This document shows positions 2,871-61,108 of a stretch of 64,000 nucleotides of DNA, in pieces. The notes under the pieces were generated by a model that saw only the letters and a list, made by a program, of their open reading frames with translations, was not told where the DNA came from and ran no database searches. Position numbers and translations under genes: made by a program. Within the stretch, counting starts at the first letter, position 1. Every line of letters starts with the position of its first letter. The DNA comes from a virus (Duplodnaviria > Heunggongvirae > Uroviricota > Caudoviricetes): IMG/VR virus record IMGVR_UViG_3300043436_004750. One strand, written 5' to 3'.

Positions 2871-2970
2871 AAAATTAAGGGAGGGGGCGCAAGACAACTC
2901 ACCGAAGGTATCACGCGCAAATTCTCCCAACCCTCCAGGTTGTAGGAGGTAAAATCTAAATAAAAGTTAT

Positions 2971-3225
2971 ATGAAAACAGTTTACAAGTATGAGTTAAGA
3001 TCACAAGATGCTAGTATAAAGCTTCCAAAAGGGGCAGAGATACTTACAGTACAATTACAAAACGGTATACCAACCCTATGGGCACTTGTAGATCCAGAGA
3101 ATGTATTAGAGGATAGATTTATATCTACTGTTGGTACAGGATGGGAAGTATCGGATAATATGAAGTATATTTGTACATACATGGAAGGATACTTTGTATG
3201 GCATGTATTTGAAATGGTACTATAA
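2971..3225 (+). CDS. hypothetical protein
   Basis: 84-aa ORF. Confidence 0.5.
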   Translation: MKTVYKYELRSQDASIKLPKGAEILTVQLQNGIPTLWALVDPENVLEDRFISTVGTGWEVSDNMKYICTYMEGYFVWHVFEMVL

Positions 3226-3469
3226 TATGAAAATAGAAGACGTAGTATTGTACCACAAGAAGTATAGAGGTAATAAAGTAACCTTCAACTCTAGAAAAGG
3301 GGCAGGAAAGGTTATAGAAGGAATAGCCGTACAGGTGGTAAAGGAACAAGGAGGACTAATAATACTCAGAGACTATGATAACTTCCCACATTGTATATCA
3401 ATATTAACATTAGAAATCGCAGATCAAGAAGCAGGGCTTCTTTCAAGCTCTGTCTTCGACGAGATATGA
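3194..3469 (+). CDS. hypothetical protein
   Basis: 91-aa ORF overlapping previous gene end. Confidence 0.45.
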   Translation: MYGMYLKWYYNMKIEDVVLYHKKYRGNKVTFNSRKGAGKVIEGIAVQVVKEQGGLIILRDYDNFPHCISILTLEIADQEAGLLSSSVFDEI

Positions 3470-4109: not shown

Positions 4110-4367
4110 TGTCTTCGACGGTTAAACATAAAGAGTAGAAAAAAGAAGGGAAGAGTATAAAGACATATAGTACTAGGTATGAAAAGGTACTATATAGTAT
4201 ATACGATGTGTAAAATGATAGGAAAGGGATAGTAAAATAAGAATAGGAAAAATGTGGCGGGTGTGTCTCCCTAATAGTTTTTTCCTATAATAAGGAAAAC
4301 CTATAGTAGATACCCGTTCTATAGACCCGTTTTATATACAAAGACCCGTCTAGTAACTCGATTCGAT

Positions 4368-4500
4368 ACCCAATTGAGACCCGTTCTGTAACCCGGGCTA
4401 GTTACCCGTTTTGTTACCCGACTTGGCACCCAATTGAGACCCGTTTTGTAACCCGACCTCTTACCCGTTTTGTTACCCGATTGAGACCCGTTTTAGTCCC
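4368..4500. repeat. iteron array: about 57-bp unit x2.3 containing nine GT(T/A)ACCCG sites at 11-12-bp spacing
   Basis: acccg at 4379, 4391, 4404, 4416, 4439, 4451, 4463, 4475, 4486; followed by ccccc-ttcg-ggggg hairpin. Confidence 0.65.
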
Positions 4501-5207: not shown

Positions 5208-5239
5208 TTGGATCATATTAGATAAGTCCGTATATTTAG
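5208..5239 (+). promoter_or_regulatory. early promoter family member
   Basis: TTG 5208-5210, TATATTTAG 5231-5239, then GGTATCAATAATTAAAAC leader. Confidence 0.55.
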
Positions 5240-5266
5240 GTATCAATAATTAAAACGACATATATC

Positions 5267-5641
5267 ATGGTAAACAACATTAAAGGATTACAGCTTGTAA
5301 ATTTCATTGGAGAAAGAAAAGGTATCTTCCAGGCCATAGTAAAGGTACCGGCAGGTTTTATGGTAGCATCTGAGATAGGTTCTGAATTACCTAGCCTTAA
5401 TAGATGGAAGAAAGGAGCTCTTCAATCTATCCAGTTTAAAGCTCAGGGGGTAAATCACTGGGTAACAGTATTTGCTAAGAAAGGTACAAATATAATCTTA
5501 TTAGATGAGAAGATAGCTGAGACGGTAGAGGTAGGTACAATCAATCAATTGTTCTATAACACCAATCTAATGGATCAGAATCAATATCAAGCAGTAAAGG
5601 CCAAGACATGGGCTGATAAGGCATTCTTATTAAACGAATAA
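5267..5641 (+). CDS. hypothetical protein
   Basis: 124-aa ORF downstream of promoter. Confidence 0.6.
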   Translation: MVNNIKGLQLVNFIGERKGIFQAIVKVPAGFMVASEIGSELPSLNRWKKGALQSIQFKAQGVNHWVTVFAKKGTNIILLDEKIAETVEVGTINQLFYNTNLMDQNQYQAVKAKTWADKAFLLNE

Positions 5642-5668
5642 TTTTTGAAAAATAAATAGGTAAAAGGG

Positions 5669-5700
5669 TTGGTTATTCCAATCCTTTTTCTTATCTTTAG
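5669..5700 (+). promoter_or_regulatory. early promoter family member
   Basis: TTG 5669-5671, TATCTTTAG 5692-5700. Confidence 0.6.
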
Positions 5701-5727
5701 GTATCAATAATTAAAACATATAAAAAA

Positions 5728-5919
5728 ATGAAAAACAGGAAGCAGGTTATGAAACATTTAGTAGGTAAGAAAGTTAGTGCCGTAGCAGATTGTGGTACAT
5801 ATAAAGGAAAATGCGTAGAAGGTATTTTATCTTTTTATGAAATAACAGGACAGTATTTAGTAAAGACAGATACTCATACAGTATCAGTGAAGGAAGAAAC
5901 AATTGAACTATTAAACTAA
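5728..5919 (+). CDS. hypothetical protein
   Basis: 63-aa ORF after promoter. Confidence 0.55.
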   Translation: MKNRKQVMKHLVGKKVSAVADCGTYKGKCVEGILSFYEITGQYLVKTDTHTVSVKEETIELLN

Positions 5920-5945
5920 GTGTTATGAAAAAAGTTTAAAAAAAG

Positions 5946-5977
5946 TTGGTTCGTATTATTTTATTTACTATCTTTAG
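5946..5977 (+). promoter_or_regulatory. early promoter family member
   Basis: TTG 5946-5948, TATCTTTAG 5969-5977. Confidence 0.6.
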
Positions 5978-6003
5978 GTATCAATAATTAAAACATATAT
6001 ATC

Positions 6004-6219
6004 ATGACAAAAGAATTAAAAAACAAGATTATTACCTCAATGAACACTATGTTAAGAAATACTGAGGTAAGAGACTTAGTTAAACCTAAGAACAATAAGG
6101 ATTGTTCAAGAATGACTTTTGGATATAATACAAATGACTATACCTTATTCTTTTCAAATGGAGAAGTGTTTGTAAATACAGACTCAGGGTTATTTGTAGC
6201 AGAGGTAATTAATTTATAA
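6004..6219 (+). CDS. hypothetical protein
   Basis: 71-aa ORF. Confidence 0.55.
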   Translation: MTKELKNKIITSMNTMLRNTEVRDLVKPKNNKDCSRMTFGYNTNDYTLFFSNGEVFVNTDSGLFVAEVINL

Positions 6220-6225
6220 AAAAAG

Positions 6226-6257
6226 TTGCCTCTTCGGAGGCAATTCACTATCTTTAG
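6226..6257 (+). promoter_or_regulatory. early promoter family member; -33 embedded in gcctc-ttcg-gaggc hairpin
   Basis: TTG 6226-6228, TATCTTTAG 6249-6257. Confidence 0.6.
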
Positions 6258-6292
6258 GTATCAATAATTAAAACAATTTAAATCAGAATAAG

Positions 6293-6535
6293 ATGAAAGA
6301 TAAAATTTTTAAATACCTATTTCTAAAACAAGAAAACCAATATAAAGATGATTTTGGTAATTTGTGGCATAAGTATAGAATCAATCCATACAATCCGTTA
6401 AGTTATTTTGTAATAATATTTGGATTAATCCTTGCTTTGATTCTATTTGGTGCATTAGGTATGTGGAGGGAAGTTGATATAAGAAATCCATTCAAATGGA
6501 ACAGATACCAAATTAGTAATAACTTTTACTTTTAA
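6293..6535 (+). CDS. small membrane protein
   Basis: 80 aa, TM helix VIIFGLILALILFGALGMW. Confidence 0.55.
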   Translation: MKDKIFKYLFLKQENQYKDDFGNLWHKYRINPYNPLSYFVIIFGLILALILFGALGMWREVDIRNPFKWNRYQISNNFYF

Positions 6536-6559
6536 CTGAGCAATTTAAATCAGAATAAG

Positions 6560-7333
6560 ATGAAAAACATACACGTACTACCAACAGACAAACCAAGTAG
6601 GTTAAGATACAATTTATCAAATGTACTTGTTTTAACAAAAGAATCTTATAGAGATTATGGTAAACAAGTTAATCAAAACATCTACATCACTTCTGATGAA
6701 GAAATTAAAGAAGGAGATTGGGTTATCGAACATAGTTTGAATTGGGTATTTAAAATACATAAACATGGTTTACCTAATTATACTCCAAATAAAAAGAAAA
6801 TCATTCTAACAGACAATAAAGACTTAATAAAAGATGGTGTACAAGCTATTGATGATGATTTTTTAGAATGGTTTGTTAAGAATCCAAGTTGTGAGGAAGT
6901 TGAGGTTGAGAGAGAGAAATCTATTGGTTATGCTGGAGATAGACAGAGAACTTTTTATGGTGGTTACAAAATAATCATTCCAAAAGAAGAACCTAAACAA
7001 GTAGGGATTGACTGGTCAGGGTTTCCAATATCAACACAAGAAAAAGTTGGTTATGTAGAACCTAAACAAGAAACACTTGAAGAAACTAAATTAAATGAAA
7101 AAGAGTTCTATAAGTATATGGCAAAGCAAGATTCTTGGAAAAGTACTGGCTTAATTATTCAAGAGTTTATACAATTAAAACTTAAAGAACAAGATAAGAA
7201 TAAATATAGTGAAGCAGATAAAATTATGAAGTTCTTAGATACAGAAGTAAAGTTAGGGCTTTCAGATATAAAAACTATTGAAAGGATAAAATGGTATTTT
7301 GAAACATACTTTGAACAATTTAAAAACAAATAA
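6560..7333 (+). CDS. hypothetical protein
   Basis: 257-aa ORF; 25-bp leader caatttaaatcagaataagatgaaa duplicated from 6275. Confidence 0.6.
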   Translation: MKNIHVLPTDKPSRLRYNLSNVLVLTKESYRDYGKQVNQNIYITSDEEIKEGDWVIEHSLNWVFKIHKHGLPNYTPNKKKIILTDNKDLIKDGVQAIDDDFLEWFVKNPSCEEVEVEREKSIGYAGDRQRTFYGGYKIIIPKEEPKQVGIDWSGFPISTQEKVGYVEPKQETLEETKLNEKEFYKYMAKQDSWKSTGLIIQEFIQLKLKEQDKNKYSEADKIMKFLDTEVKLGLSDIKTIERIKWYFETYFEQFKNK

Positions 7334-7334
7334 G

Positions 7335-7685
7335 ATGAAAGTACTTTTTATATACTTCTTAATCTCTACAGTACCTCTATCCACTTACCTAGACGGTGTT
7401 ACTAAAGCTTCTTATTATCATGATAAATTTAATGGTAGAAAAACAGCTAGTGGAGAGGTATTTGATAATACAAAACTAACAGCAGCTCATAAGTCTTTAA
7501 AGTTTGGAACCATAGTAGAGGTTACTAATATTAAAAATAGTAAGTCAGTTGAGGTAAGGATTATTGATAGGGGGCCCTTTGTTAGGGGTAGGGAAATAGA
7601 TTTATCAAAAAAAGCATTTAATCAAATAGGTTGTATTAAATCAGGTATCTTAGAGGTTTCTTATACAGTTATTAAAAAAAGTTAA
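7335..7685 (+). CDS. secreted RlpA-like double-psi beta-barrel (DPBB) protein
   Basis: Signal peptide MKVLFIYFLISTVPLS; SYYHDKFNGRKTASGEVFD...TAAHKSLKFGTIVEVTN...VEVRIIDRGPFVRGREIDLS matches RlpA/DPBB consensus. Confidence 0.65.
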   Translation: MKVLFIYFLISTVPLSTYLDGVTKASYYHDKFNGRKTASGEVFDNTKLTAAHKSLKFGTIVEVTNIKNSKSVEVRIIDRGPFVRGREIDLSKKAFNQIGCIKSGILEVSYTVIKKS

Positions 7686-7693
7686 AGAAAAAG

Positions 7694-7725
7694 TTGCTCA
7701 ATTGAATTAATGTTCTTATCTTTAG
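7694..7725 (+). promoter_or_regulatory. early promoter family member
   Basis: TTG 7694-7696, TATCTTTAG 7717-7725. Confidence 0.6.
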
Positions 7726-7752
7726 GTATCAATAATTAAAACATATAACATC

Positions 7753-8046
7753 ATGGCTAAAAAAACTTACAAGGACACAGACGGAACGTCATTTCGTGGA
7801 ATTACAATTCAAGCTTCAGTTGATCAATTAACAAAAGCTTTTGGGGAACCTGAGAATAATAATACGGGTGAGGACAAAGTAAATTTCGTATGGGATATGG
7901 AAACTGAGGATGGAGAAGTATTTACAATTTACGATTGGAAAGAGGGTCGTCCATTGAGATCGGATGAATTTGTAACGTGGCATATCGGAGCTAAAAGTGA
8001 ATCAGATTCGAGAATTGCTCAAAGAGAATTACTAAAAGCCCTTTAA
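7753..8046 (+). CDS. hypothetical protein
   Basis: 97-aa ORF. Confidence 0.55.
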   Translation: MAKKTYKDTDGTSFRGITIQASVDQLTKAFGEPENNNTGEDKVNFVWDMETEDGEVFTIYDWKEGRPLRSDEFVTWHIGAKSESDSRIAQRELLKAL

Positions 8047-8061
8047 TCAGGGCTTATAAAT

Positions 8062-8193
8062 AGTCAGGTGGCGGAATGGTAGACGCTAAGAAGTTGGTTT
8101 ATAGTTTCTCAAACAATGCGATGTTGTTTGAAACCAAGACACTTTAGGTGTAGAAAAATTTGAAACATACAGGTTCGAATCCTGTCCTAACTA
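8062..8193 (+). tRNA. tRNA-like gene, 132 nt, type-II-like D-arm, about 50-nt structured insertion, no encoded CCA
   Basis: 5' AGTCAGG-TG-GCGGAATGGTAGACGC (Leu/Tyr-like D-arm); 3' ACAGG-TTCGAAT-CCTGT T-arm + CCTAACT acceptor (6/7 bp); middle contains nested hairpins ttggttt...aaaccaa and tcaaacaa/ttgtttga. Confidence 0.45.
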
Positions 8194-8313
8194 CAAACAA
8201 TTAAAACTAAAAACTATGGAACACGCTTATTATTGGGTATCTACATTTTTACAACTAATTATGATTATCATTTTAGGTGGAATTTATGAAAATGTAAAAA
8301 AAAAATAAAAAAC

Positions 8314-8393
8314 AGTCAGGTGGCGGAATTGGGTCAAGCTATGGTACTTTTTAACAATACTTAAGCATACAGGTTCGAATCCTGTCCTGACTA
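8314..8393 (+). tRNA. tRNA-like gene, 80 nt, no encoded CCA; isotype not resolved
   Basis: AGTCAGG...ACAGGTTCGAATCCTGT-CCTGACT-A: perfect 7-bp acceptor and canonical T-arm; possible anticodon arm gtact-ttttaac-aatac (TTA?) is uncertain. Confidence 0.45.
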
Positions 8394-8425
8394 CAAAAAT
8401 AAATTAAAAAAAGTTACTAAAATAG

Positions 8426-8457
8426 TTGCCTCATAAAATTAATGTTCTTATCTTTAG
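8426..8457 (+). promoter_or_regulatory. early promoter family member
   Basis: TTG 8426-8428, TATCTTTAG 8449-8457. Confidence 0.6.
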
Positions 8458-8484
8458 GTATCAATAATTAAAACATATAACATT

Positions 8485-9270
8485 ATGACAAGAGTTCAAA
8501 TTTTAGAGAAAAAAGTTGAAGTATTAGTTTCAGAAAAACAATCTATAGCATCTCAAAGATATGCTTGTAGAGAGAGATTTGAAAAAGCTTTAACAAGAGG
8601 ATTTAATAGATACTTCAGAGGAATTGTTTCTGAGGATATTAGAATTGAATGTACTCAAACAGGAATTTACTTCAAGAAAATGAATGAAGAAGGTTCCTAT
8701 GAGAAAGAATTATTTAGTATTTATCTTAAGGAGACTTATTTTTCTATAGAAAAAAGAGAGGAAATGTTTCGTGGTTGTGAATTATCTTACTATACAACCT
8801 CTTCTAATTCAGATTGGGAATTAGAGAGATTAACAAATTTGGGTAGAGTTGCTCAAGTATTAAAAGATTTTAAAGATGAAGTTGTAAATCAAGCAAATGA
8901 ATTAGCAAAGATTTATAATGCTGAAATGGAAATAGAAAAGTTTTATGAGAGAGAATCTTTAGTTGAAAAGCAAATCTCAGAAATTAGATCTCAAATCAAA
9001 GCTTTTGAAAAAGAGAGAATAGTATTTGATTTAAAGAATGAAGGAATTACTTTTGATGTAGGTTGTAATATTCAATTGAAGTGGAATTATGCTCCTAGAA
9101 TTGTAAGTTTAAAATTAATTGACTTTTCTAAATCAGGGAAGAAAGCTACAGCAATCTTTGAATGGGAGAGAGGGAGAGAGTCTAGAGAAGAAAATGTAAA
9201 TGTTGATTCTATTATTGATCAAGTATTAGGATTTGCTAAAAATATTACTCAGTCCGTTTTAGCTGAGTAG
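8485..9270 (+). CDS. hypothetical coiled-coil protein
   Basis: 261-aa ORF. Confidence 0.6.
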   Translation: MTRVQILEKKVEVLVSEKQSIASQRYACRERFEKALTRGFNRYFRGIVSEDIRIECTQTGIYFKKMNEEGSYEKELFSIYLKETYFSIEKREEMFRGCELSYYTTSSNSDWELERLTNLGRVAQVLKDFKDEVVNQANELAKIYNAEMEIEKFYERESLVEKQISEIRSQIKAFEKERIVFDLKNEGITFDVGCNIQLKWNYAPRIVSLKLIDFSKSGKKATAIFEWERGRESREENVNVDSIIDQVLGFAKNITQSVLAE

Positions 9271-9541
9271 TTTTAATTGTTGATACGAAGAGAGCTGCTA
9301 TGAAAATAGCGGCTTTCCTAGGTGACCGCTAGGTCGGTTTTTAATTATTGATATTGGAGCCTCTCTATTAATTTAGAGGGGTTTTCCTTTTTTCTTGCTA
9401 TTTATATATGTAATGACAATAGATTGGAGTCTTAGTCTTAACAGAGCATATAGTTGGATACAGAGGATTATTTCCTTATATTTATTTTAGATTACTATTC
9501 TCTTTAGTGTGCACTCCAATCCACTTAAGAGATAATCATAA

Positions 9542-9573
9542 AGAGCTTCTCTTAATTGAGAGGCTCTTTTTTT
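9542..9573 (+). terminator. strong intrinsic terminator (10-bp stem agagcttctc/gagaggctct, loop ttaatt, T7)
   Basis: seen in sequence; 270 nt downstream of nearest CDS end. Confidence 0.55.
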
Positions 9574-9835
9574 ATATGCCTTATTGTCTTATGACGATAA
9601 TCCTTTAAGGCGTCTAATCCTTATAAAATCCATCTGATGGGACTTCGATTGTAATCTGAAAAGGATCAATCACCTTACCTAGACGAAGCAGCTAGGATAG
9701 GAGCTAGGTGAGAAGGGTGCTTTGGCTCACAAGAGTATGTTACATCAAACATCAGGACAGTACCATGAAAAAGGAAGTAATGGGAATTAAAATCTTTATA
9801 TGTATACTTATGTTTAATAATTAAAATAAAATAAT

Positions 9836-10039
9836 ATGGCTGGAAAATATTCTAAGATAAAATGGATGAGTAATCAAACCTTTGGAGACTATAACTTAGA
9901 TAGAACTATCAAAACAGATAACTTATCTAAATCTCAGCTGGAAAGATATTTGAAGAAGAAAAGGTTAGAATCCCAGAGAAGGGAAGAAGAATTAAGAGAA
10001 CCTAGAGTAAAAAGAAATGGTAAAATAATTAAAAAATAG
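9836..10039 (+). CDS. small basic protein
   Basis: 67-aa ORF, Lys/Arg-rich. Confidence 0.45.
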   Translation: MAGKYSKIKWMSNQTFGDYNLDRTIKTDNLSKSQLERYLKKKRLESQRREEELREPRVKRNGKIIKK

Positions 10040-10071
10040 TTGCCTCCTATTATCTTTCTTCTTATCTTTAG
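10040..10071 (+). promoter_or_regulatory. early promoter family member
   Basis: TTG 10040-10042, TATCTTTAG 10063-10071. Confidence 0.6.
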
Positions 10072-10098
10072 GTATCAATAATTAAAACATATAAAACT

Positions 10099-10293
10099 AT
10101 GATGGACGTTAACTACTTTTTAGATCAAGCACAGAATTCTTATCAACATGAATTCAACGAAGATTGGGCAGATGTTATAATGGAGATGACAGATGACTTT
10201 ACAATGTTAATAACAGAAGATGGTTATGCAATGACTATCGACTGGACTACAGAAGGAGAATTTAATGGTTATAATTCTCACAATAATAGTTAA
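10099..10293 (+). CDS. hypothetical acidic protein
   Basis: 64-aa ORF. Confidence 0.55.
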   Translation: MMDVNYFLDQAQNSYQHEFNEDWADVIMEMTDDFTMLITEDGYAMTIDWTTEGEFNGYNSHNNS

Positions 10294-10301
10294 TAAAAAA
10301 G

Positions 10302-10333
10302 TTGCCTCACAAAGATAAAGTTCTTATCTTTAG
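10302..10333 (+). promoter_or_regulatory. early promoter family member driving an ORF-less unit
   Basis: TTG 10302-10304, TATCTTTAG 10325-10333; only 8- and 18-codon ORFs before terminator at 10440. Confidence 0.5.
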
Positions 10334-10439
10334 GTATTAATAATTAAAAATAAAGTGTTATGAGTGAATTAGAAAAGGGTTAGTAATATTTAGTGGAGAA
10401 AAAAGGGAGGAGAAAATAATTGTTATGAAAAAAAAAGTT

Positions 10440-10470
10440 AGCAGATTAGTTGCTAGTCTGCTTTCTTTTT
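10440..10470 (+). terminator. hairpin agcaga/tctgct + T-rich run
   Basis: seen in sequence. Confidence 0.45.
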
Positions 10471-10481
10471 CTTATCTTTAG
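10450..10481 (+). promoter_or_regulatory. early promoter family member
   Basis: TTG 10450-10452, TATCTTTAG 10473-10481. Confidence 0.6.
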
Positions 10482-10508
10482 GTATCAATAATTAAAACAA
10501 ACAATATT

Positions 10509-10694
10509 ATGACACAGGTTATTCAAAAAGGAGGTTCTATCGGAACAACTAACAAAGTAGTTAAGGAATTTGAAAATCATGAAGAAGCAAAAGCATATGC
10601 TAAGCTAAGAAGATCTTATCTATCTCCAGGAGAAAAGAATTATTACGGTATGTCTTATACTGTAAAAAAGATTAAAAAAAAGTTGCTTAATTAA
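10509..10694 (+). CDS. hypothetical protein
   Basis: 61-aa ORF. Confidence 0.5.
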   Translation: MTQVIQKGGSIGTTNKVVKEFENHEEAKAYAKLRRSYLSPGEKNYYGMSYTVKKIKKKLLN

Positions 10695-10714
10695 ATCCAA
10701 TTTCTTATCTTTAG
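10683..10714 (+). promoter_or_regulatory. early promoter family member
   Basis: TTG 10683-10685, TATCTTTAG 10706-10714. Confidence 0.6.
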
Positions 10715-10741
10715 GTATTAATAATTAAAACATATAAAATC

Positions 10742-11092
10742 ATGACAAAAGATCAAACATTAGTAGCATTAGGAAATCAATTAGATTCATTCTATTCTTT
10801 ACAACAAGTAATTGATATTGTAAAAAATATTGAAGTAGGTCCAAGTAGAAAGATTACAGTTACAGATATTCAAAGAGCAATTGACAATGTAGTTGATATT
10901 TTTGAAAGAAACACAGAAGATGTAGTTGAATACACAAATGTTGAATTCAAGATTAGCTATGATAATAGAATTGAAGTAGAGAGTGTTAGATTGAGTATGG
11001 ATTCTATCAGAGAAATACTTGAGAACAACTTTATGGATTTTGGTGAAGTTGAAGTAGAAGTTAAAGAAGAAAAAGAAGAAAATGAATTATAA
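10742..11092 (+). CDS. hypothetical acidic protein
   Basis: 116-aa ORF. Confidence 0.55.
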   Translation: MTKDQTLVALGNQLDSFYSLQQVIDIVKNIEVGPSRKITVTDIQRAIDNVVDIFERNTEDVVEYTNVEFKISYDNRIEVESVRLSMDSIREILENNFMDFGEVEVEVKEEKEENEL

Positions 11093-11101
11093 ATAAAGTT
11101 G

Positions 11102-11133
11102 CCTCTTCGGAGGCTTCTTCTTATCTTTAGGTA
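11102..11133 (+). promoter_or_regulatory. early promoter family member; -33 in gcctcttcggaggc hairpin
   Basis: TTG 11102-11104, TATCTTTAG 11125-11133. Confidence 0.6.
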
Positions 11134-11157
11134 TCAATAATTAAAACAATATAAACT

Positions 11158-11430
11158 ATGTCAAATTTATTATCAACAGCAAAAAATTTATTAAAAGATC
11201 AGGCAATTGAATTGTATGATATCTATGCAGAAGATATTCCTTTAAAGAAAGAAGACTACAGAAGTCATTATGCTAATCTAGGAGAACGATTATTTGAAAT
11301 TGATTCAATTAATTTATTCTCAGAATTAATCGCTAAGCTTGAATCTAATTCCTTTTCTGAATTAGGTTATGATTCTGATGATGAAGATTTATTAGAAGAG
11401 TTTTTAGAAAAAGTGAAGAAATCTCAGTAA
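11158..11430 (+). CDS. hypothetical acidic protein
   Basis: 90-aa ORF. Confidence 0.55.
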   Translation: MSNLLSTAKNLLKDQAIELYDIYAEDIPLKKEDYRSHYANLGERLFEIDSINLFSELIAKLESNSFSELGYDSDDEDLLEEFLEKVKKSQ

Positions 11431-11431
11431 T

Positions 11432-11665
11432 ATGTCATACGAGAGAAATATAAAAGGAACATGGAAAGGAAAGGAGAGGAAGGTGTCTAAGCCTTCTTCT
11501 CCGATGATAGGGGTAGTGTATAAGGGGGTAGGTAAATCCTGTGGTAGGGAAGAGGTAGGAGTCTTAGTAGAGATGTTTGATCAGAACGATGAAGCAATCC
11601 TTAGAACAAAAGAAAATAAATTAATCTCAGTAGATAAAAGATCATTAAAAGCAATCACAGTATGA
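11432..11665 (+). CDS. hypothetical protein
   Basis: 77-aa ORF. Confidence 0.5.
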   Translation: MSYERNIKGTWKGKERKVSKPSSPMIGVVYKGVGKSCGREEVGVLVEMFDQNDEAILRTKENKLISVDKRSLKAITV

Positions 11666-11814
11666 AAGAACAAATATTAAATGAACTTACAGCAACAATG
11701 AATCGTCTAATGACTACAGAAGAGATCTTAGACTTCTTTGAAAACATATTAGGAGAGATGTCTGAGGATAGATTACAGAATATATTGGCAGAGGTAAGAG
11801 CTAACTATAATTAA
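11662..11814 (+). CDS. small protein (50 aa)
   Basis: ATGA overlap with upstream stop; below track cutoff. Confidence 0.3.
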   Translation: MKEQILNELTATMNRLMTTEEILDFFENILGEMSEDRLQNILAEVRANYN

Positions 11815-11821
11815 AAAATAG

Positions 11822-11853
11822 TTGCCTCTTAGAATAATAGTTCTTATCTTTAG
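11822..11853 (+). promoter_or_regulatory. early promoter family member
   Basis: TTG 11822-11824, TATCTTTAG 11845-11853. Confidence 0.6.
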
Positions 11854-11880
11854 GTATCAATAATTAAAACAATATAAATC

Positions 11881-12063
11881 ATGGAAGAAGTTAGAGAGTA
11901 CTTTGCAAGCAATTATGGCCATATTGATCTTTGGTCTGTATCAGATGAGGACATCACAGAGTTCTTAGAGAGAGTTTATTTAGAGGGTTTATCTTTTGAA
12001 CAGAAGATGGATTGTTTTTGTGATTATTTAATGGCTAATCAGTTAGTTGATTATGATGAATAG
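11881..12063 (+). CDS. hypothetical protein
   Basis: 60-aa ORF. Confidence 0.5.
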   Translation: MEEVREYFASNYGHIDLWSVSDEDITEFLERVYLEGLSFEQKMDCFCDYLMANQLVDYDE

Positions 12064-12074
12064 TTAAAAAAAAG

Positions 12075-12106
12075 TTGCCTCTTCGGAGGCAATTTCTTAT
12101 CTTTAG
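12075..12106 (+). promoter_or_regulatory. early promoter family member; -33 in gcctcttcggaggc hairpin
   Basis: TTG 12075-12077, TATCTTTAG 12098-12106. Confidence 0.6.
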
Positions 12107-12133
12107 GTATCAATAATTAAAACAAGATACAAT

Positions 12134-32760: not shown

Positions 32761-33198
32761 ATGTGGTTATATCAAAATAAAGAAATAAAAGAACTAGAAG
32801 ATATGCCCGGAGATAACTTCGGATTTATCTATGAAGTAACACATCTACCAACCGGTAGAAAGTACTTAGGAAAGAAGCAACTTATTTCTGTTACAAAAAA
32901 AGCTTTAGGTAAAAAAGAATTAGCTTTAATAACAGATAAAAGAGTTAGTAAATCTAAAATAGTTAGAAAAGAATCTGATTGGAAAACATACTACGGTTCT
33001 CACTCAGAAATAAAAGGCTTAATAAAAGAAGGAAAACAGTCGGAATTCTCAAGAGAAATTCTTATCTTTACTCCAAATAAGAAGTTACATACATACTATG
33101 AGAACAAATTCCTATTTATGAAAGGAGTAATAGAGCCAGATTCTAACTATATAAATGATAATATAGAAGGAAGATATTTTAGAAAAGATTTCTTATGA
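32761..33198 (+). CDS. GIY-YIG-like (degenerate) endonuclease
   Basis: GFIYEVTHLPTGRKYLGKK resembles GIY-x10-YIG. Confidence 0.35.
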   Translation: MWLYQNKEIKELEDMPGDNFGFIYEVTHLPTGRKYLGKKQLISVTKKALGKKELALITDKRVSKSKIVRKESDWKTYYGSHSEIKGLIKEGKQSEFSREILIFTPNKKLHTYYENKFLFMKGVIEPDSNYINDNIEGRYFRKDFL

Positions 33199-33866
33199 TA
33201 AAATTACAAGAAATAGTAGGATTACCAACCCTACAATACCACTTAGACAACAAGCTGACACTATCTGAATGTGTCTACCGTTATTCCTCTGATTCGTTTA
33301 TACAGTTGTTTGCTGAAGCAAGAAAGGCTCTAAGAGACGGTAAAATCGTATTAAGTGAACAAGATATACTCCTATTAGAAAATACAGATATTGGAGAGTA
33401 TGGAATGTATGAAGGACAAAAAGTTCCTTTAGACCTTCCAATGATCGATGAAGGGGATTACGATTCTCTAGAGGATGAAATCGCTAACAATGAATTCGGA
33501 ATGGACTATGATCAATTAGGTCCAAATGAAAAGGAATGGGTAGATGTTGAAGTAGCAAAACTAAATGAAGCAGAATACAGAGGTAAAGATGTTCCTTTAA
33601 ACAAACCAAAAAGAGGAGGATCTAAAAAATTCTACGTTTATACTAAGAATAAAAAAGGAAATGTAGTAAAAGTATCTTTTGGAGCAGTAGACGGAGGAGG
33701 AGCTTTAGCAGTCAAACTAGATGACCCTAAAAGGAGAAAAGCGTTTGCAGATAGACATAACTGTGATAAAAAAACAGATAAGACAACACCGGGATACTGG
33801 TCTTGCAGACTAACAAGGTATGCAAAACAGTTAGGAATGAAGAAAAACTACTCCGGCTATTGGTAG
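33195..33866 (+). CDS. hypothetical protein
   Basis: 223-aa ORF between two endonuclease genes. Confidence 0.5.
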   Translation: MIKLQEIVGLPTLQYHLDNKLTLSECVYRYSSDSFIQLFAEARKALRDGKIVLSEQDILLLENTDIGEYGMYEGQKVPLDLPMIDEGDYDSLEDEIANNEFGMDYDQLGPNEKEWVDVEVAKLNEAEYRGKDVPLNKPKRGGSKKFYVYTKNKKGNVVKVSFGAVDGGGALAVKLDDPKRRKAFADRHNCDKKTDKTTPGYWSCRLTRYAKQLGMKKNYSGYW

Positions 33867-33869
33867 GTA

Positions 33870-34616
33870 TTGGAAAATAGTTACTATTTATTAAAAAAGA
33901 GTAGTATGCAAATTTACAAGATTACAAATAGGGTAAATGGAAAAGTTTATATAGGGAAGGATGAAGCAAGTAGGCCTCCGTACTATGGATCAGGAAAGCT
34001 TATAAGAAGGGCAATACAGCTGTACGGGAAAGATAGTTTTGAAAAAGAAATAATAGAAGATGTAGAAGGAAGAGAACTGCTTTGTGAAAGAGAAATCTAC
34101 TGGATATCTTTTTATAACAGTACAGATAGCAGGATAGGATACAATATTACCAAAGGAGGAGATGGAGGAGACACTTTATCAAACCATCCAGACTTAGATA
34201 CTATTAAGGAAAAAATCTCAAATGCTACAGTAGGAAGAGTCTTCACAGAAGAACACCTTATTAACCTAAAAAAGAATCATCCAAAACTAACAATGGAGGA
34301 GAAGAATATGGATAAAGCTACTTGGTTGGTTTCAATTAGAGAATCACATGCAAAGAGAAAGGGAAAGACATTAGAGGAGATTGTAGGAGAAGATAGAGCA
34401 AAAAAGATAAAAGAACATCTAAGAGAGAAGAGACAGGAGAGGGCAGAATACTTTGAAACACCAGTTGCACAATACTCTAGAGAAGGGGAACTCCTTCAAA
34501 CTTATAAAAGCCAGGCAGAAGCATCTAAAGCAACAGGTATAAGGCAGGGTGATATTTCAAATTGCATAAAAGGAAGACAAAAAGTAGTTAAAGGATTTAT
34601 TTGGAAAAGGATATGA
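33870..34616 (+). CDS. GIY-YIG homing endonuclease
   Basis: IYKITNRVNGKVYIGKDEASRPPYYGSGKLIRRAIQLYGKDSFEKEII..E...YW...YN (I-TevI/Seg-like); C-terminal basic DNA-binding tail; start may be 33906. Confidence 0.7.
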   Translation: MENSYYLLKKSSMQIYKITNRVNGKVYIGKDEASRPPYYGSGKLIRRAIQLYGKDSFEKEIIEDVEGRELLCEREIYWISFYNSTDSRIGYNITKGGDGGDTLSNHPDLDTIKEKISNATVGRVFTEEHLINLKKNHPKLTMEEKNMDKATWLVSIRESHAKRKGKTLEEIVGEDRAKKIKEHLREKRQERAEYFETPVAQYSREGELLQTYKSQAEASKATGIRQGDISNCIKGRQKVVKGFIWKRI

Positions 34617-34954: not shown

Positions 34955-35443
34955 ATGAAAAAATCAGAACTAGCAAAAGTAATAAGAGAGGAACTTCAAG
35001 GATATTCAAAATATCTAGGTAAAACTAAAGGAGGAACTCCTGATGAGTTTATGCAAATTTTAACTAGAATTGCTAAGGGAGCAGAAAAAGGAGATGCTGA
35101 AAGAGGTAATGCGATTTTAGATAAAGCTAATCCTGAAAACGTAGCTAGAATTACTAGAGGAGAAAAACCTATGTACGAAGAAAAAGGAACATTAACAGCT
35201 TCAGAGATTAAAGAATTTGTTAAACAAACTCTTAACCTTCAAGATTATGACGTTAGTGTCAGACTCAACCCAGCCTATAACGAAATTACATTAACAATAA
35301 AGCAAGATCCTTCTGAAGAAGATTTTAACACTGTACTTAACTATTTAGAAGATAACGGATACACAATCGACCGTAAACAAACAACAAGAGAAGGGGATGA
35401 TGATGGTGATAGATATTACTACCCTAGAATTAGGTTTCAATAG
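34955..35443 (+). CDS. hypothetical protein
   Basis: 162-aa ORF. Confidence 0.55.
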   Translation: MKKSELAKVIREELQGYSKYLGKTKGGTPDEFMQILTRIAKGAEKGDAERGNAILDKANPENVARITRGEKPMYEEKGTLTASEIKEFVKQTLNLQDYDVSVRLNPAYNEITLTIKQDPSEEDFNTVLNYLEDNGYTIDRKQTTREGDDDGDRYYYPRIRFQ

Positions 35444-35883
35444 TGATCAGTCTTTATAACATACTAAAAGAAGTAATTTCACCAACCCAAGAATACCAAG
35501 AACTTGTAAATGACATCATCGACCAAGGAGGAGAGTTCTTAGGATCAGGAGACTATGGTTCAGTTTACTTAGTAGGAGACAAAGTAAAAAAAGTAACTAC
35601 TGATTCAGAAGAATTAGAAGATGCACAGCAAATAAAGGGAGAAAAGACTAAATACTTTGTACATATATACGATGTAGAGGTTAGAAATCCAAAACTAGGA
35701 ATTATCACAATGGATAATCTAGAACCTTTTACAGGATCTGAGAAAGATGTTCCAATTGATGATATAATGAAAGAAGCAGACATACTAGGGATATACCCAG
35801 ACTTAGAAGGACCAGGAGGATCTATCAAGATGGACAATGTAATGCAAGACAGAAACGGAAGCATAAAAATAATAGATGTATAG
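35443..35883 (+). CDS. hypothetical protein with kinase-like Gly-rich loop
   Basis: LGSGDYGSVYLVGDKVKKV resembles GxGxxGxV...VxxK ATP-binding loop; only 146 aa. Confidence 0.45.
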   Translation: MISLYNILKEVISPTQEYQELVNDIIDQGGEFLGSGDYGSVYLVGDKVKKVTTDSEELEDAQQIKGEKTKYFVHIYDVEVRNPKLGIITMDNLEPFTGSEKDVPIDDIMKEADILGIYPDLEGPGGSIKMDNVMQDRNGSIKIIDV

Positions 35884-35906
35884 AGTTGCTTAATTGCAAC
35901 TCTTTT
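35882..35906 (+). terminator. hairpin agagttgc-ttaatt-gcaactct + T-run
   Basis: seen in sequence. Confidence 0.45.
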
Positions 35907-35917
35907 CGTATCTTATA
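35886..35917 (+). promoter_or_regulatory. variant promoter (TTG, 20-nt spacer, TATCTTATA)
   Basis: TTG 35886-35888, TATCTTATA 35909-35917. Confidence 0.35.
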
Positions 35918-35940
35918 ATGTCAATCAGTTATGTATAACT

Positions 35941-36861
35941 ATGAGTAGTAATATACTATTAGGATTTATAGAGAATGTTTTAGGCAAATCCCATAAGAGA
36001 GCAAGGGAGAACTACGCTTTTACTTGCCCTAAATGCAATCACCATAAGCCAAAGCTAGAGGTAAACATGCATACCAATGAAAAAGGAGAGAATCCTTTCG
36101 AATGCTGGGTATGTGGCTTTAAAGGAAGGACAATTAAGTCATTGCTTAAACAATTACAAGTACCTGCCGAACAAGCATATGAAATACTTAAATACGTAAG
36201 AAAAGGTGACGAAATAGGGTATACACCTACAACTTCTGTAGAACTTCCTAAAGAGTTTCAAGCTCTTTATACAGCATCAACTACATCCATTATTGCAAAT
36301 AAAGTAAGAAGATACCTATATAAAAGGGGTTTTACCGATAGAGACTTCCTAAAATACAATATAGGTTACTGTACTTCAGGAGAATACGCCGGAAGAGTTA
36401 TTATTCCTTCTTATAACGAGAATAATCAACTAAATACATTTGTAGGTAGAACCTTCGAAGATGCATACCATAAATACAGAGGTCCAGAGAGTTCTAAAGA
36501 TATTATAGTCTTTGAGAACCTTATCAATTGGGCCCAACCCATAGTACTTGTGGAGGGTGTATTTGATGCAATAGCAGTAAAAAGAAACGCAGTACCAATA
36601 CTTGGTAAGTCTTTATCAAAATCTTTGATAAAAAAGATAATATCAAGTCAGGTAGAAGATATATACGTAGCCCTAGACAGGGATGCATTTAAAAAAGCAC
36701 TCTCATATACAGAACAGTTTCTGAATATGGGAAAGAAAGTATATCTAGTAGATATGCAAGATAAGGATCCAAGCGAGATGGGCTTTGCAAGCTTTACTCG
36801 ATATGTACAACAAGCAGAGGAAATGGACTTCGGGAAGTTACTCCGCTACAAACTATCATAA
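35941..36861 (+). CDS. DNA primase (CHC2 zinc finger + Toprim)
   Basis: CPKCNHHKPKL...FECWVCGFKG zinc-binding; VLVEGVFDAIAV and ALDRD Toprim acidic motifs. Confidence 0.65.
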   Translation: MSSNILLGFIENVLGKSHKRARENYAFTCPKCNHHKPKLEVNMHTNEKGENPFECWVCGFKGRTIKSLLKQLQVPAEQAYEILKYVRKGDEIGYTPTTSVELPKEFQALYTASTTSIIANKVRRYLYKRGFTDRDFLKYNIGYCTSGEYAGRVIIPSYNENNQLNTFVGRTFEDAYHKYRGPESSKDIIVFENLINWAQPIVLVEGVFDAIAVKRNAVPILGKSLSKSLIKKIISSQVEDIYVALDRDAFKKALSYTEQFLNMGKKVYLVDMQDKDPSEMGFASFTRYVQQAEEMDFGKLLRYKLS

Positions 36862-37715: not shown

Positions 37716-38627
37716 ATGGGAGGAAACGTATTCGATAGTACTGCACCAATAAAAAAAGAACATATTAAACCAACTCTATTAGAGTTTTTTAAACAGTTCA
37801 AACAAATATTTCCAAAAGCAGAACCATTCTTTAGAGAGATGAAAACTCTAGGATCTGTAGGGAAAAAAGACTATTCAGGGGATATTGACCTAGCACTTGC
37901 CGGGTCATCCTTTAATAATATAAATGATTGGGGATTGGATGAGAAACACGTTCAAGACTTATTTACAGGATTTAAAAAAAGAGCTAGAACCTCTACAGAT
38001 GATCAGTTGATGAAAAGAGCAGTAATAGTTTCTGTAGCTCAAAAGATATTAGATGCTGATACAGAGATTATAGCAGATGTAAAAGGATCAGGAGCAGGAG
38101 CTTTATTCTTACTATTTCCTCAGTATGATGAAAATAACAAAGCAGTAGGTCAAAACGTTCAAATAGATGTAAATATAGGAGATGTTGATTGGTTAGAATT
38201 TGCATATTACTCAAATACATACTCAGGAAATGTAAAAGGACTCCACAGAACACAACTCATGCTAGCCATGTTCTCAAATAAAGGATATACCTTCTCACAT
38301 AACTACGGAGTAAAAGACAGGGATACTCAAGAAATTGTAGCAAATAATCCACAACAAGCCATAGAACTACTAAATAAAGAATACGGATTAAATCTAGATA
38401 AAGAGACATTAGGGGATTATTTTAAATTAAAAAAAACTCTAGAAGCAGGACTATCTCCTGAGGAATTAAACAGGATTTACGACATTTACTTAAAAATTCT
38501 AGATTCTACAAGAGCAGATATTCCAGAAGATCTTCAGTCATATTGGATTGAGAATCAAGAAAGACTGGGGTTGAAGGGAAAATTCCTTCCAGATAATTCA
38601 AATTTAATTAAATACCAAAATTTATAA
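37716..38627 (+). CDS. Pol-beta-superfamily nucleotidyltransferase (CD-NTase/MNT-like)
   Basis: LGSVGKKDYSGDIDLAL (GS-x9-DhDh) plus downstream IDVNIGDVD acidic residue; about 300 aa. Confidence 0.5.
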   Translation: MGGNVFDSTAPIKKEHIKPTLLEFFKQFKQIFPKAEPFFREMKTLGSVGKKDYSGDIDLALAGSSFNNINDWGLDEKHVQDLFTGFKKRARTSTDDQLMKRAVIVSVAQKILDADTEIIADVKGSGAGALFLLFPQYDENNKAVGQNVQIDVNIGDVDWLEFAYYSNTYSGNVKGLHRTQLMLAMFSNKGYTFSHNYGVKDRDTQEIVANNPQQAIELLNKEYGLNLDKETLGDYFKLKKTLEAGLSPEELNRIYDIYLKILDSTRADIPEDLQSYWIENQERLGLKGKFLPDNSNLIKYQNL

Positions 38628-38628
38628 T

Positions 38629-41334: not shown

Positions 41335-41346
41335 AATAAAAAGGTT

Positions 41347-41922
41347 ATGGGAAAATTAATAGACTTATTACTGACAGAAGAAGACTTTAATCCTCCCTAT
41401 CAGATATATTGTGATATGGATGGAGTATTAACAGATTTCGAAAAGAGATTTGTTGAGATGTTAAAATTAGAAGGTCCAAAGTACTATTCAAAAGAGGTTA
41501 TAAACCAAGTAACAAGACCTAAACACTTCGAAAAACTCGAAGGAGAAACAGAGTTTTGGAACTTCATTGATAATCATTTAGGATTAGAGTTCTGGTCAGG
41601 AATGAATTGGATGCCAAATGGGAAACAACTATGGTCCTTTATTCAACCATACAATCCAACCATACTTACATCTCCATCAAGACAAAACACATCAAGACTT
41701 GGAAAAAGAATGTGGATAAGGGAACATCTAATACCTGCCCCTCCTGTAGAATTTAGATTTGGAGCAAGTAAGTCGGATTTTGCAAATGAAAAAGCTATCT
41801 TAATTGATGATAGACCTTCCAACCTATCAGCATTTGCTGCAAAAGGAGGAATAGCTTTAGAGGTAAAAAATGGAGAAATACAATCGGTTATTAATAAATT
41901 AAAAGAATTAGGTTTTAAATAA
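41347..41922 (+). CDS. NT5C-type 5'(3')-deoxyribonucleotidase (HAD superfamily)
   Basis: IYCDMDGVLTDF (DxDGVL motif I) ... ILIDDR. Confidence 0.6.
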   Translation: MGKLIDLLLTEEDFNPPYQIYCDMDGVLTDFEKRFVEMLKLEGPKYYSKEVINQVTRPKHFEKLEGETEFWNFIDNHLGLEFWSGMNWMPNGKQLWSFIQPYNPTILTSPSRQNTSRLGKRMWIREHLIPAPPVEFRFGASKSDFANEKAILIDDRPSNLSAFAAKGGIALEVKNGEIQSVINKLKELGFK

Positions 41923-44888: not shown

Positions 44889-44948
44889 AAAATCTTACTA
44901 TTTATTTGTATATATGAATGTAATTACTTATCTTTAGATAATCAAAAT

Positions 44949-60680: not shown

Positions 60681-60712
60681 TAAAAACAACTATTTATAAG
60701 TAAAATATATTT

Positions 60713-61105: not shown

Positions 61106-61108
61106 CAC

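Follow-up and report, generated by a model that had tools for sequence, protein, structure and literature searches.

The tRNA-like domain of transfer-messenger RNA (tmRNA), the tRNA-like structures of plant viruses, the YrlA Y RNAs, and the TMERs of MHV68 mimic the acceptor, T-arm, or elbow of tRNA and enter tRNA maturation or bind tRNA-binding proteins, and some such mimics are aminoacylated without decoding. Engineered tRNA scaffolds keep the acceptor, D-arm, and T-arm and carry a chosen RNA at the place of the anticodon arm for processing and stability. A bacterial YrlA Y RNA is reported to be a tRNA mimic (PMC4201824). In bacteriophage T4, the tRNA gene region yields two small stable RNAs, RNAC (species 1 RNA, rnaC) and RNAD, whose role is still unexplained (PMC3014915, PMC9697503). 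The present analysis concerns two genes, TL1 and TL2, in a 64,000-nucleotide (nt) stretch of phage DNA (IMG/VR virus record IMGVR_UViG_3300043436_004750, Caudoviricetes), which at its full length is called the window. They had been noticed in a preliminary description, made from the sequence alone, as a pair of tRNA-like genes with identical ends. Both are very probably members of a phage family in which a constant tRNA-Leu-like frame, here called the chassis, surrounds a variable insert. The interest lies in this family, which is abundant, conserved, and multicopy, rather than in the pair.

Shared ends and different centers of TL1 and TL2

TL1 starts with AGTCAGGTGGCGGAAT and ends with ACAGGTTCGAATCCTGTCCTAACTA, followed by CAAACA, and TL2 has the same start and ends with ACAGGTTCGAATCCTGTCCTGACTA, followed by CAAAAA; the common 3' end reads ACAGGTTCGAATCCTGTCCT(A/G)ACTA. 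Neither gene encodes CCA, CAA standing 3' of both (...ACUA, then CAA), and the preceding dinucleotides are AT for TL1 and AC for TL2. The identical 5' and 3' ends, the lengths of 132 and 80 nt, and the lack of an encoded CCA, all given in the preliminary description, were borne out when the sequence was read again. The shared 5' 16-mer and the shared 3' 21-mer each occur at exactly two sites in the window even when three mismatches are allowed (expected, 0.2 and 0.00 sites, respectively).

A canonical T-arm and a 7-bp acceptor had also been assigned to both loci. The T-arm is present in both, but seven perfect acceptor pairs are formed only in TL2; the TL1 acceptor has 6 bp and a C4.A69 mismatch (CCTAACT instead of CCTGACT). 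The TL1 D-arm contains the pairs G10-C25, C11-G24, and G12-C23 and the G13.A22 apposition, together with A14, A15, G18, and G19. The nested hairpins that had been noticed at the place of the TL1 anticodon arm are indeed there (ttggttt at 8094-8100 with aaaccaa at 8131-8137, and tcaaacaa at 8109-8116 with ttgtttga at 8124-8131), and both were recovered by the minimum free energy (MFE) fold. Their loop is UGCGAUG, and no arm is found where an anticodon arm is expected. The TL1 insert consists of this nested hairpin (8094-8137), a small hairpin (ACAC-TTTAG-GTGT, 8139-8151), and an A-rich single-stranded tail with a CAT end (8152-8168).

A multicopy phage family with a constant chassis

Covariance model R1, for which 48 IMG/VR copies from outside the window were used and only the acceptor, D, and T helices were annotated, matched TL2 at 70.6 bits (E value, 6e-14) and TL1 at 68.8 bits (E value, 1.5e-13), each over model positions 1-89, and gave no third match within the 64-kb window. 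At least 120 IMG/VR contigs carry an exact copy of the 3' 25-mer. One 5-kb stretch, L011 in the numbering used here for the loci compared, holds five exact copies and up to about 10 near-copies with different inserts. A total of 207 copies were found in 1.17 Mb at four or fewer mismatches, 178 of them with a matching 5' end. The main set comprised 168 unique full copies, ascertained by the 3' end, with lengths of 67 to 191 nt (median, 106 nt); one copy of 54 nt was also seen.

The conserved 5' end of the 168 copies is AGTCAGGTGGCGGAAT(T)GGTAGACGC. Written by structural element, the 5' half of the chassis reads AGUCAGG-UG-GCGG-AAU(U)GGUAGA-CGC and the 3' half (C)AU-ACAGG-UUCGAAU-CCUGU-CCUGACU-A. 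The chassis keeps the acceptor AGUCAGG/CCUGACU, A73, U8, a Leu-type D-arm with A14, A15, G18, and G19, U48, and a canonical T-arm; A73 is found in 97% of the copies, A14 in 93%, A15 in 92%, and U48 in 84%. As read from these sequences, what is retained amounts to the acceptor/T minihelix plus the D/T elbow, and the insert takes the place of the anticodon and variable arms. The alternative offered in the preliminary description, that TL1 is a non-tRNA RNA mimicking tRNA ends, is supported by the constant chassis and unrelated inserts of more than 200 copies and holds for TL2 too.

Across 185,579 species genomes, the 25-mer gave 14 matches, all in contigs of metagenome-assembled genomes (MAGs) and none in an isolate, and a host origin of the family was rejected on this count. 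Several of the 14 MAG contigs are labeled Sediminibacterium, Chitinophagia, or Bacteroidota. A terminase shared by 12 carrier loci has 51% identity to that of 42-kb Flavobacterium psychrophilum siphophages, and since other carriers are of myophage size, the family crosses phage types. The few clues to the hosts, namely, the MAG labels and this single terminase cluster, indicate Bacteroidota. No GenBank phage with both chassis halves was found, and Rfam 15 has no family for these elements. The family was not found described in the full-text literature searched, which misses most subscription journals and by which novelty is not proven.

Selection on the chassis structure

Pairing is at least 98% at the seven acceptor positions and the five T-stem positions of the 168 copies, and the D-stem has 3 bp plus G13.A22, as in tRNA-Leu, with switches from C-G to U-A. 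A second survey, anchored independently on the D-arm 19-mer GTGGCGGAATGGTAGACGC, yielded 97 new loci and 64 R1 matches scoring 43 to 77 bits. In the alignment of these 64 matches, 99.2% of the cells were paired, a value to be read with the caution that the alignment was fitted to a model that favors the structure, although the margin is still large: control structures with the partner slid by one to three columns were 27 to 44% paired. Changes on both sides were seen in 12 of the 15 pairs (59 cells), a result reached by none of 500 shuffles. Compensatory evolution of the stem is evident from acceptor variants such as AGUCCAG/CUGGACU, AGCCAAG/CUUGGCU, and GUCAAGG/CCUUGAC. This covariation indicates that the chassis is a real, selected structure.

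Evidence against a decoding function

The ARAGORN and covariance-model scans proposed in the preliminary description gave tRNA calls for TL2 and none for TL1. ARAGORN called TL2 only, as tRNA-Stop(tta), and the Rfam tRNA model (RF00005) gave TL2 32.4 bits against a gathering score of 29, a value reached by skipping the 17-position anticodon arm as a local end. TL1 had no Rfam tRNA match even at an E value of ≤10. The best anticodon arm of TL2 has a C.A mismatch in its stem and reads UUA, a stop anticodon. A canonical tRNA was rejected for both genes, TL1 being scoreless, TL2 passing the threshold only with the anticodon arm skipped, and neither having a sense anticodon arm.

The family as a whole points the same way. 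Its anticodon calls are scattered. The D-arm-anchored sample contained 49 elements with other acceptors, mostly of 80 to 85 nt, 33 of which were called tRNA-Leu (caa, taa, tag, or gag). It also contained 37 AGUCAGG-type elements of 73 to 159 nt, 26 of which were uncalled and 11 of which had scattered anticodons: Glu(ctc), Pro(ggg), Ile(aat), Tyr, Cys(aca), Val(aac), Thr(agt), two Leu, and two with 4-base anticodons. ARAGORN calls in the 3'-end sample include act, agg, aga, acc, ata, cta, and tta; A34 anticodons of such kinds are not used by bacteria. Because one acceptor stem with A73 cannot serve a dozen amino acid identities, these elements are not decoders. They score 30 to 45 bits on the Rfam tRNA model, versus 46 to 70 bits for the real tRNAs in the same loci, and family members of 54 to 72 nt have no anticodon arm. 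One AGUCAGG-type copy (L033, 5644-5731) scores 49.8 bits on that model and has a near-canonical anticodon arm reading CAA (Leu); it may stand near the functional tRNA-Leu from which the chassis descended.

That TL2 is an ochre suppressor (UUA) and TL1 a spliced, intron-containing tRNA, both being real decoding tRNAs, is hardly credible. The idea could draw on the ARAGORN call and Rfam score of TL2, on the small TL1 hairpin, which by eye could, with one pair opened, display UUA in a 7-nt loop, and on five same-frame pairs of open reading frames (ORFs) with a single stop between them. However, TAA terminates 56 of the 85 open frames of at least 100 codons in the window, as it does the ORFs flanking TL1 and TL2; this usage fits the standard code, and with TAA as the main stop, a functional ochre suppressor would be harmful. 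Suppression or stop recoding was rejected on these grounds, TAA not being depleted as a terminator, and on the scatter of the family calls, many of them unnatural. The distrust that the preliminary description had expressed of the TTA assignment in TL2 was therefore justified. In addition, the TL2 D-stem has only two pairs beside the mismatched anticodon stem, and model R1 fits TL2 far better than does the tRNA model. An intron, one of the options raised for TL1, does not hold either. A group I core takes about 200 nt or more, which neither the inserts of 30 and 82 nt nor those of the family at large, of about 20 to 140 nt, could hold; Rfam finds no intron family in the pair, and the short relatives have no anticodon arm that splicing could restore. 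Bacteria lack a splicing pathway for bulge-helix-bulge introns. A tmRNA was likewise rejected: position 3-70 is U-A, ARAGORN finds no tmRNA, and the Rfam tmRNA model matches only a 17-nt fragment at 6.8 bits.

Features suggesting tRNA maturation and possible leucylation

In carrier contigs, the elements typically lie between canonical tRNA genes on the same strand, TL1 and TL2 being an exception; family membership does not depend on this location. The position before the element is T in 84% of the family, with A/T-rich sequence upstream, C74 is found in 97%, with AA or TA after it, and no CCA is encoded. The flank pattern is shared by 180 canonical tRNAs of these loci. U8, A14, G18, G19, the T-loop UUCGAAU, and the 12-bp acceptor/T minihelix are features read by RNase P, by 3' processing, and by CCA-adding enzymes. 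With such flanks and features, the elements look like substrates of the tRNA maturation pathway.

The determinants of bacterial leucyl-tRNA synthetase (LeuRS) are A73 together with U8-A14, G18-U55, and G19-C56 (and A15-U48 in Escherichia coli), the anticodon arm being dispensable for aminoacylation (PMC2377443). In the same work, in which C69U and D-loop mutants were tested, an irregular 4-69 pair was very damaging to LeuRS recognition (PMC2377443). All of these determinants are kept in the chassis, and both TL1 and TL2 carry them in sequence, but TL1 has C4.A69 and TL2 has a weak D-stem. The chassis RNAs may be leucylated.

Diversity of the inserts

The inserts are approximately 20 to 140 nt long, as estimated from the total length minus 50 nt of chassis ends. 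BLAST clustering of the 168 centers gave 145 clusters, most of them singletons. Folding was on average slightly more stable than expected, with a mean MFE z score of -0.58, which differs from zero (t test, P about 1e-10); the TL1 insert alone has a z score of -1.24. These values suggest weak constraint on the inserts. No k-mer motif was shared among the inserts beyond subfamily effects and GNRA (GAAA-type) hairpins, and no Rfam family was found within them. Exact-string scans of IMG/VR found no homologs of the TL1 and TL2 inserts, giving only chance matches in unrelated coding DNA, and a comparison of the inserts with 2.2 Mb of related phage DNA gave no match besides other copies. In a search of the window for antisense targets, the longest matches, of 12 and 11 nt, equaled those of shuffled controls.

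Three elements, L045 (107 nt), L059 (169 nt), and L089 (182 nt), have an extra hairpin within the D-loop, between GGCGGAA and GGTAGACGC. These hairpins show that the chassis tolerates insertions at two sites.

Genomic setting of the pair

The window belongs to a Flavobacterium-type myophage with 83% nucleotide identity to Flavobacterium phage immuto, a GC content of about 33%, and mostly plus-strand coding. The pair sits within an array of small early genes (Table 1). Copies of the repeat TTTAGGTATCAATAATTAAAAC stand 10 to 12 nt upstream of the ATG of successive small genes, with TAGTTG about 20 nt further upstream, and the repeat looks like a phage early promoter of the Bacteroidota type (-33/-7) with a shared leader. 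It is also found in immuto and in the loci L130, L145, and L147, where it borders the same variable slot. No promoter-like element was found by the scan between the two copies that enclose the pair, and TL1 and TL2 would therefore be the tail of the transcript of the 97-amino-acid (97-aa) ORF. The hairpin over the stop codon of that ORF was not called an intrinsic terminator by a simple scan.

Table 1. Positions of TL1, TL2, their parts, and neighboring features in the window
Feature	Position	Strand	Remarks
Putative promoter/leader repeat, 22 nt, TTTAGGTATCAATAATTAAAAC	13 sites, 5235-12123	all +	Expected 0; mostly exact
Putative promoter/leader copy upstream of 97-aa ORF	7721..7742	+	Sole promoter-like element upstream of TL1/TL2
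Hairpin AAGCCCT-ttaatc-AGGGCTT over TAA stop (8044-8046) of upstream 97-aa ORF	8036..8055	+	Left border of block missing in immuto
TL1, anticodon-less tRNA-like RNA gene	8062..8193	+	132 nt; full-length match of family model R1
TL1 acceptor, 5' strand AGTCAGG	8062..8068	+	Pairs with 8186-8192 (CCTAACT); A73 = 8193
TL1 D-arm, tRNA-Leu type, GCGG-AATGGTAG-ACGC	8071..8086	+	Sequence read
TL1 variable insert, 82 nt	8087..8168	+	MFE fold
TL1 T-arm, ACAGG-TTCGAAT-CCTGT	8169..8185	+	Sequence read
30-codon ORF, hydrophobic peptide MEHAYYWVSTFLQLIMIIILGGIYENVKKK	8216..8308	+	Exactly bracketed by TL1 and TL2
TL2, anticodon-less or degenerate tRNA-like RNA gene	8314..8393	+	80 nt; match of family model R1
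TL2 acceptor	8314-8320 with 8386-8392	+	7 perfect bp
TL2 weak D-arm	8323-8338	+	D-stem degenerate, 2 Watson-Crick pairs
TL2 insert, 30 nt	8339-8368	+	Without stable fold, MFE 0
TL2 T-arm	8369-8385	+	A73 = 8393
Next putative promoter/leader copy, before 261-aa ORF downstream of TL2	8453..8474	+	Right side of slot

The content of the slot varies among relatives. In immuto (L001, about 4352-4372), the same hairpin is followed directly by the promoter region, and the block of TL1, the 30-codon ORF, and TL2 is missing entirely. The closest metagenomic relative (L145, with 87% amino acid identity in the 261-aa protein) has an unrelated small gene in the slot, and in L129/L146 the slot has no tRNA-like element. 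Two different tRNA-like elements, with acceptors UGUUGUG/CACAACA and GGAGAG/CUCUCC, occupy it in L130/L148, and another identical-ended pair, UACUGUG/CACAGUA, does so in L147. This variation marks the slot as a hot spot where tRNA-like genes come and go. An ORF between the tRNA-like pairs is absent from the related loci L130 and L147, and it is uncertain whether the 30-codon ORF is part of a system with TL1 and TL2. PHROG and Pfam gave no functional clue for the flanking proteins.

Two further observations concern the surroundings of the pair. In Vibrio phage ValKK3 (L002, 2452-2560), a tRNA-Met has downstream of it CAAAATAAATTGAAAAAAGTTG, an A-rich trailer or UP-like sequence almost identical to the one after TL2 (CAAAAATAAATTAAAAAAAGTT). 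This is the only BLAST match of the region to cultured phages, and the likeness is probably convergence of AT-rich sequence upstream of promoters; the Vibrio phage matches were to a tRNA-Met T-arm. The long same-frame ORF pairs of the plus strand that are split by a single stop lie at 38608-41922, 44457-46112, and 60704-62302 (TAA) and at 33183-34616 and 35434-36861 (TAG); these five pairs may be due to chance, given the tight packing of the genes.

Other elements in phage tRNA arrays

ORFs resembling homing endonucleases recur near tRNA and tRNA-like arrays (e.g., L004, 398-1198, and L084, 3697-4266). They have a T5orf172/MUG113 domain and, by eye, a GIY-YIG-like N terminus, and they recall segB in the T4 tRNA cluster. 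A second tRNA-like family, of 156 to 176 nt and with discriminator G, was seen in L013 (587-742), L043 (12256-12431), and L076 (836-992); its acceptors are UGUCAGG, UGACAGG, or UGUAGAG, and its center is partly conserved (...GGGTTGACCAC(A/C)A...). In addition, a match to the Rfam freshwater-1 RNA (RF02979) lies on the plus strand of L017 (4124-4186) within a tRNA cluster that has several tRNA-like elements, and it scores 70.1 bits against a gathering score of 72. Phage tRNA arrays seem to host several types of orphan noncoding RNA.

Anticodon-less tRNA-like genes were also seen in a cultured Bacteroidota phage, Tenacibaculum phage pT24 (L124), at 2790-2868 and 3157-3235 and also at 2278-2351 and 2953-3025. 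These tRNA-Undet features have a normal acceptor, D-arm, and T-arm, a closed hairpin, UUCGCGGGUA-UAU-UACCCUCGAA, replaces the anticodon loop, and their neighbors are annotated as tRNA-Sup and tRNA-Pro. They are a different lineage of anticodon-less tRNA-like genes.

Explanations for the pair and the family

The reading preferred here is that TL1 and TL2 are copies of a phage-specific family of non-decoding, tRNA-Leu-derived RNAs that act via their tRNA-like half; taken whole, it is an even call. One part of it, that both genes are family members, do not decode, and are substrates of the tRNA pathway, is highly probable; the other, an effector role as mimic, competitor, or decoy, is a guess that falls somewhat short of even. 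In such a mechanism, early transcription from the promoter at about 7.7 kb would yield the pair as the end of the transcript of the 97-aa ORF, and RNase P would cleave at 8061/8062 and 8313/8314. The 3' trailer, with the same initial C-A-A as that of genuine phage tRNAs, would be removed, and the CCA-adding enzyme of the host would finish the end. The product would be a stable L-shaped RNA unable to read a codon, and, carrying the LeuRS identity set, it could be leucylated. Its tRNA-like half might then serve as mimic, competitor, or decoy toward a factor recognizing the acceptor stem, T-arm, and 3' end, candidate targets being a tRNA-tail-targeting defense nuclease, a tRNA-end-modifying toxin, or an enzyme that uses aminoacyl-tRNA. 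Cas12a3 of a Bacteroidetes bacterium binds tRNA at its acceptor stem, T-arm, and CCA tail and is able to cleave truncated tRNA as well (PMC12851939), and L/F transferase, an aminoacyl-tRNA transferase, reads the acceptor-stem sequence (PMC4105747). The center would be a tolerated insertion site, and its divergence may also stop the copies from recombining.

Several observations weigh against this reading. One insert subfamily, A2, is kept between contigs, and its closing helix shows compensatory changes; L117 and L218 carry the same insert on different acceptor stems. Such cases argue that at least some inserts matter. Another alignment, A1, was disregarded because L105 stood in it on the wrong strand. 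The median element has 106 nt in compact genomes, although a dispensable center should shrink. By analogy with the LeuRS mutants, C4.A69 in TL1 and the degenerate D-stem of TL2 should weaken LeuRS recognition, and a tRNA-like element in the L130 slot has U73, so that leucylation is not general to the wider group. ARAGORN found no canonical tRNA gene elsewhere in the 64-kb window, unlike the situation of most family members. No consistent neighbor protein emerged either: when 1,677 ORFs from 120 loci were clustered, no family occurred in more than 15 loci, and the commonest neighbor families were DUF932, terminase, T5orf172, and a metallophosphatase.

The main rival turns the roles of the two parts around. 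In a natural tRNA scaffold, the chassis would be a module for maturation and stability, comparable to the engineered scaffolds or to the tRNA-like heads of the MHV68 TMERs, and the insert would be the effector (an aptamer, a protein sponge, or a base-pairing small RNA), with a job that differs from copy to copy. This is possible but on balance unlikely. The insert-based points just listed speak for it, namely, the retention of 20 to 140 nt in compact genomes, the compensated subfamily helices, and the insert shared by L117 and L218 despite different acceptors, as do the excess of structure over shuffles, the roughly 10 copies with different inserts in 5 kb of L011, and the additional D-loop hairpins of L045, L059, and L089. 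However, most inserts are singletons, the structure signal is weak, the TL2 insert has no stable fold, and neither a common motif nor a known RNA family was found, nor any complementarity beyond chance to the window or to the 2.2 Mb of related phage DNA. Moreover, covariation would be unconstrained in a pure scaffold, whereas the chassis is strongly conserved in sequence.

That conservation also bears on two further explanations. As RNA punctuation, the elements would be only RNase P and RNase Z cut signals in polycistronic early transcripts, and the excised RNA would have no function; in the window, the cuts would free the 30-codon ORF as well as the mRNA of the 97-aa ORF, the latter carrying its 3' hairpin. 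The arrangement suits this idea, since TL1 begins 6 nt after the hairpin that closes the upstream ORF, no promoter intervenes, the 30-codon ORF is exactly bracketed, and the flanks are like those of real tRNAs. It is nevertheless improbable. Most family members lie among tRNA genes that already supply cut sites, the pairs in L130 and L147 bracket no ORF, the close relatives immuto, L145, and L129 have no element at the slot, and RNase P needs no Leu-type D-arm, A73, or fixed acceptor, yet all three are conserved. More doubtful still, and very improbable, is the view that the genes are decaying tRNA-Leu pseudogenes or recombination relics without function, their identical ends reflecting a recent duplication. 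The acceptor mismatch of TL1, the degenerate D-stem of TL2, the nearly random inserts, and the presence of the block as an indel between close relatives would all fit decay. However, the decay is limited to one region, and about 50 chassis positions, including tertiary nucleotides, are kept in more than 200 copies from unrelated phage types, ranging from myophage-sized contigs to relatives of the 42-kb Flavobacterium siphophages. The stems of these copies stay paired through compensatory changes, and their flanking processing context is kept.

Beyond the preferred reading of the pair, a wider model can be put forward tentatively, although it too is rather unlikely: freshwater Bacteroidota phages would keep a modular RNA platform, in which a near-invariant tRNA-Leu chassis and a library of hypervariable inserts are multiplied in tRNA arrays. 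In such a platform, the chassis would probably be CCA-tailed and perhaps leucylated. Its products would serve either as decoys that shield real tRNAs from defenses recognizing the acceptor end or as a tRNA scaffold that delivers varied RNA effectors, a statement of role to be held just as tentatively.

Implications

Phage tRNA arrays are usually read as codon supply or as antidefense spares. In the present loci, which were chosen for carrying such an element, about 180 of 371 tRNA-shaped matches cannot decode. Elements that are conserved, multicopy, and phage specific probably do something. They likely contaminate tRNA annotation as Undet, Sup, Pyl, or odd-anticodon tRNAs and could mislead claims of suppression or recoding in phages. 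Should they prove to be decoys or scaffolds, they would represent a new class of RNA-based host manipulation. They also offer a natural, ready-made design for expressing stable RNAs in Bacteroidota.

Relation to other tRNA-like RNAs

Canonical type II tRNA-Leu has much in common with the family. The D-arm of the family is identical to that of genuine phage tRNA-Leu, with the 19-mer GTGGCGGAATGGTAGACGC in common, and the likeness extends to A73, A15-U48, the T-arm, the flanks, and the place within tRNA clusters. The family differs in lacking an anticodon arm of 5 bp and 7 nt, in its length range of 67 to 191 nt, in Rfam tRNA scores of 30 to 45 bits that are attained only when the anticodon arm is skipped, and in its random anticodon calls. 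Type II tRNA-Leu is almost certainly the evolutionary source of the family.

Other tRNA mimics resemble the family less closely. tmRNA needs G3.U70, SmpB, and a tag ORF. The topology of YrlA is the opposite, as the RNA ends in the Ro-binding helix and the acceptor stem is closed by a loop. The tRNA-like structures of plant viruses are the 3' ends of genomes, and the cargo of the MHV68 TMERs lies downstream of the tRNA-like head and not inside it. The architecture of engineered tRNA scaffolds is identical to that of the family, which is, however, natural, multicopy, and phage borne.

The nearest precedent is that of T4 RNAC and RNAD. RNAC resembles the family in architecture: it has 139 nt and a canonical T-arm (CCGGG-TTCGAAT-CCCGG), its termini pair in part, and long hairpins occupy the center in place of the D and anticodon arms. 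RNAC and RNAD form a size pair like that of TL1 and TL2, and both combine a tRNA-like end module with a structured center. The likeness is one of architecture rather than of demonstrated descent, since model R1 gives rnaC only 22.7 bits (E value, 0.0075), less than the 31.5 bits of T4 tRNA-Ser. RNAC has no Leu-type D-arm, and its terminal stem contains two U.U mismatches. For RNAD, most of the CCA is encoded: the annotation stops at CC, and an A comes next in the genome. Each T4 RNA is the product of a single conserved gene, whereas TL1 and TL2 belong to a multicopy family with hypervariable inserts. The family thus gives a comparative handle on RNAC and RNAD, and the platform model, if true, would be a testable model for the 50-year-old puzzle of RNAC.

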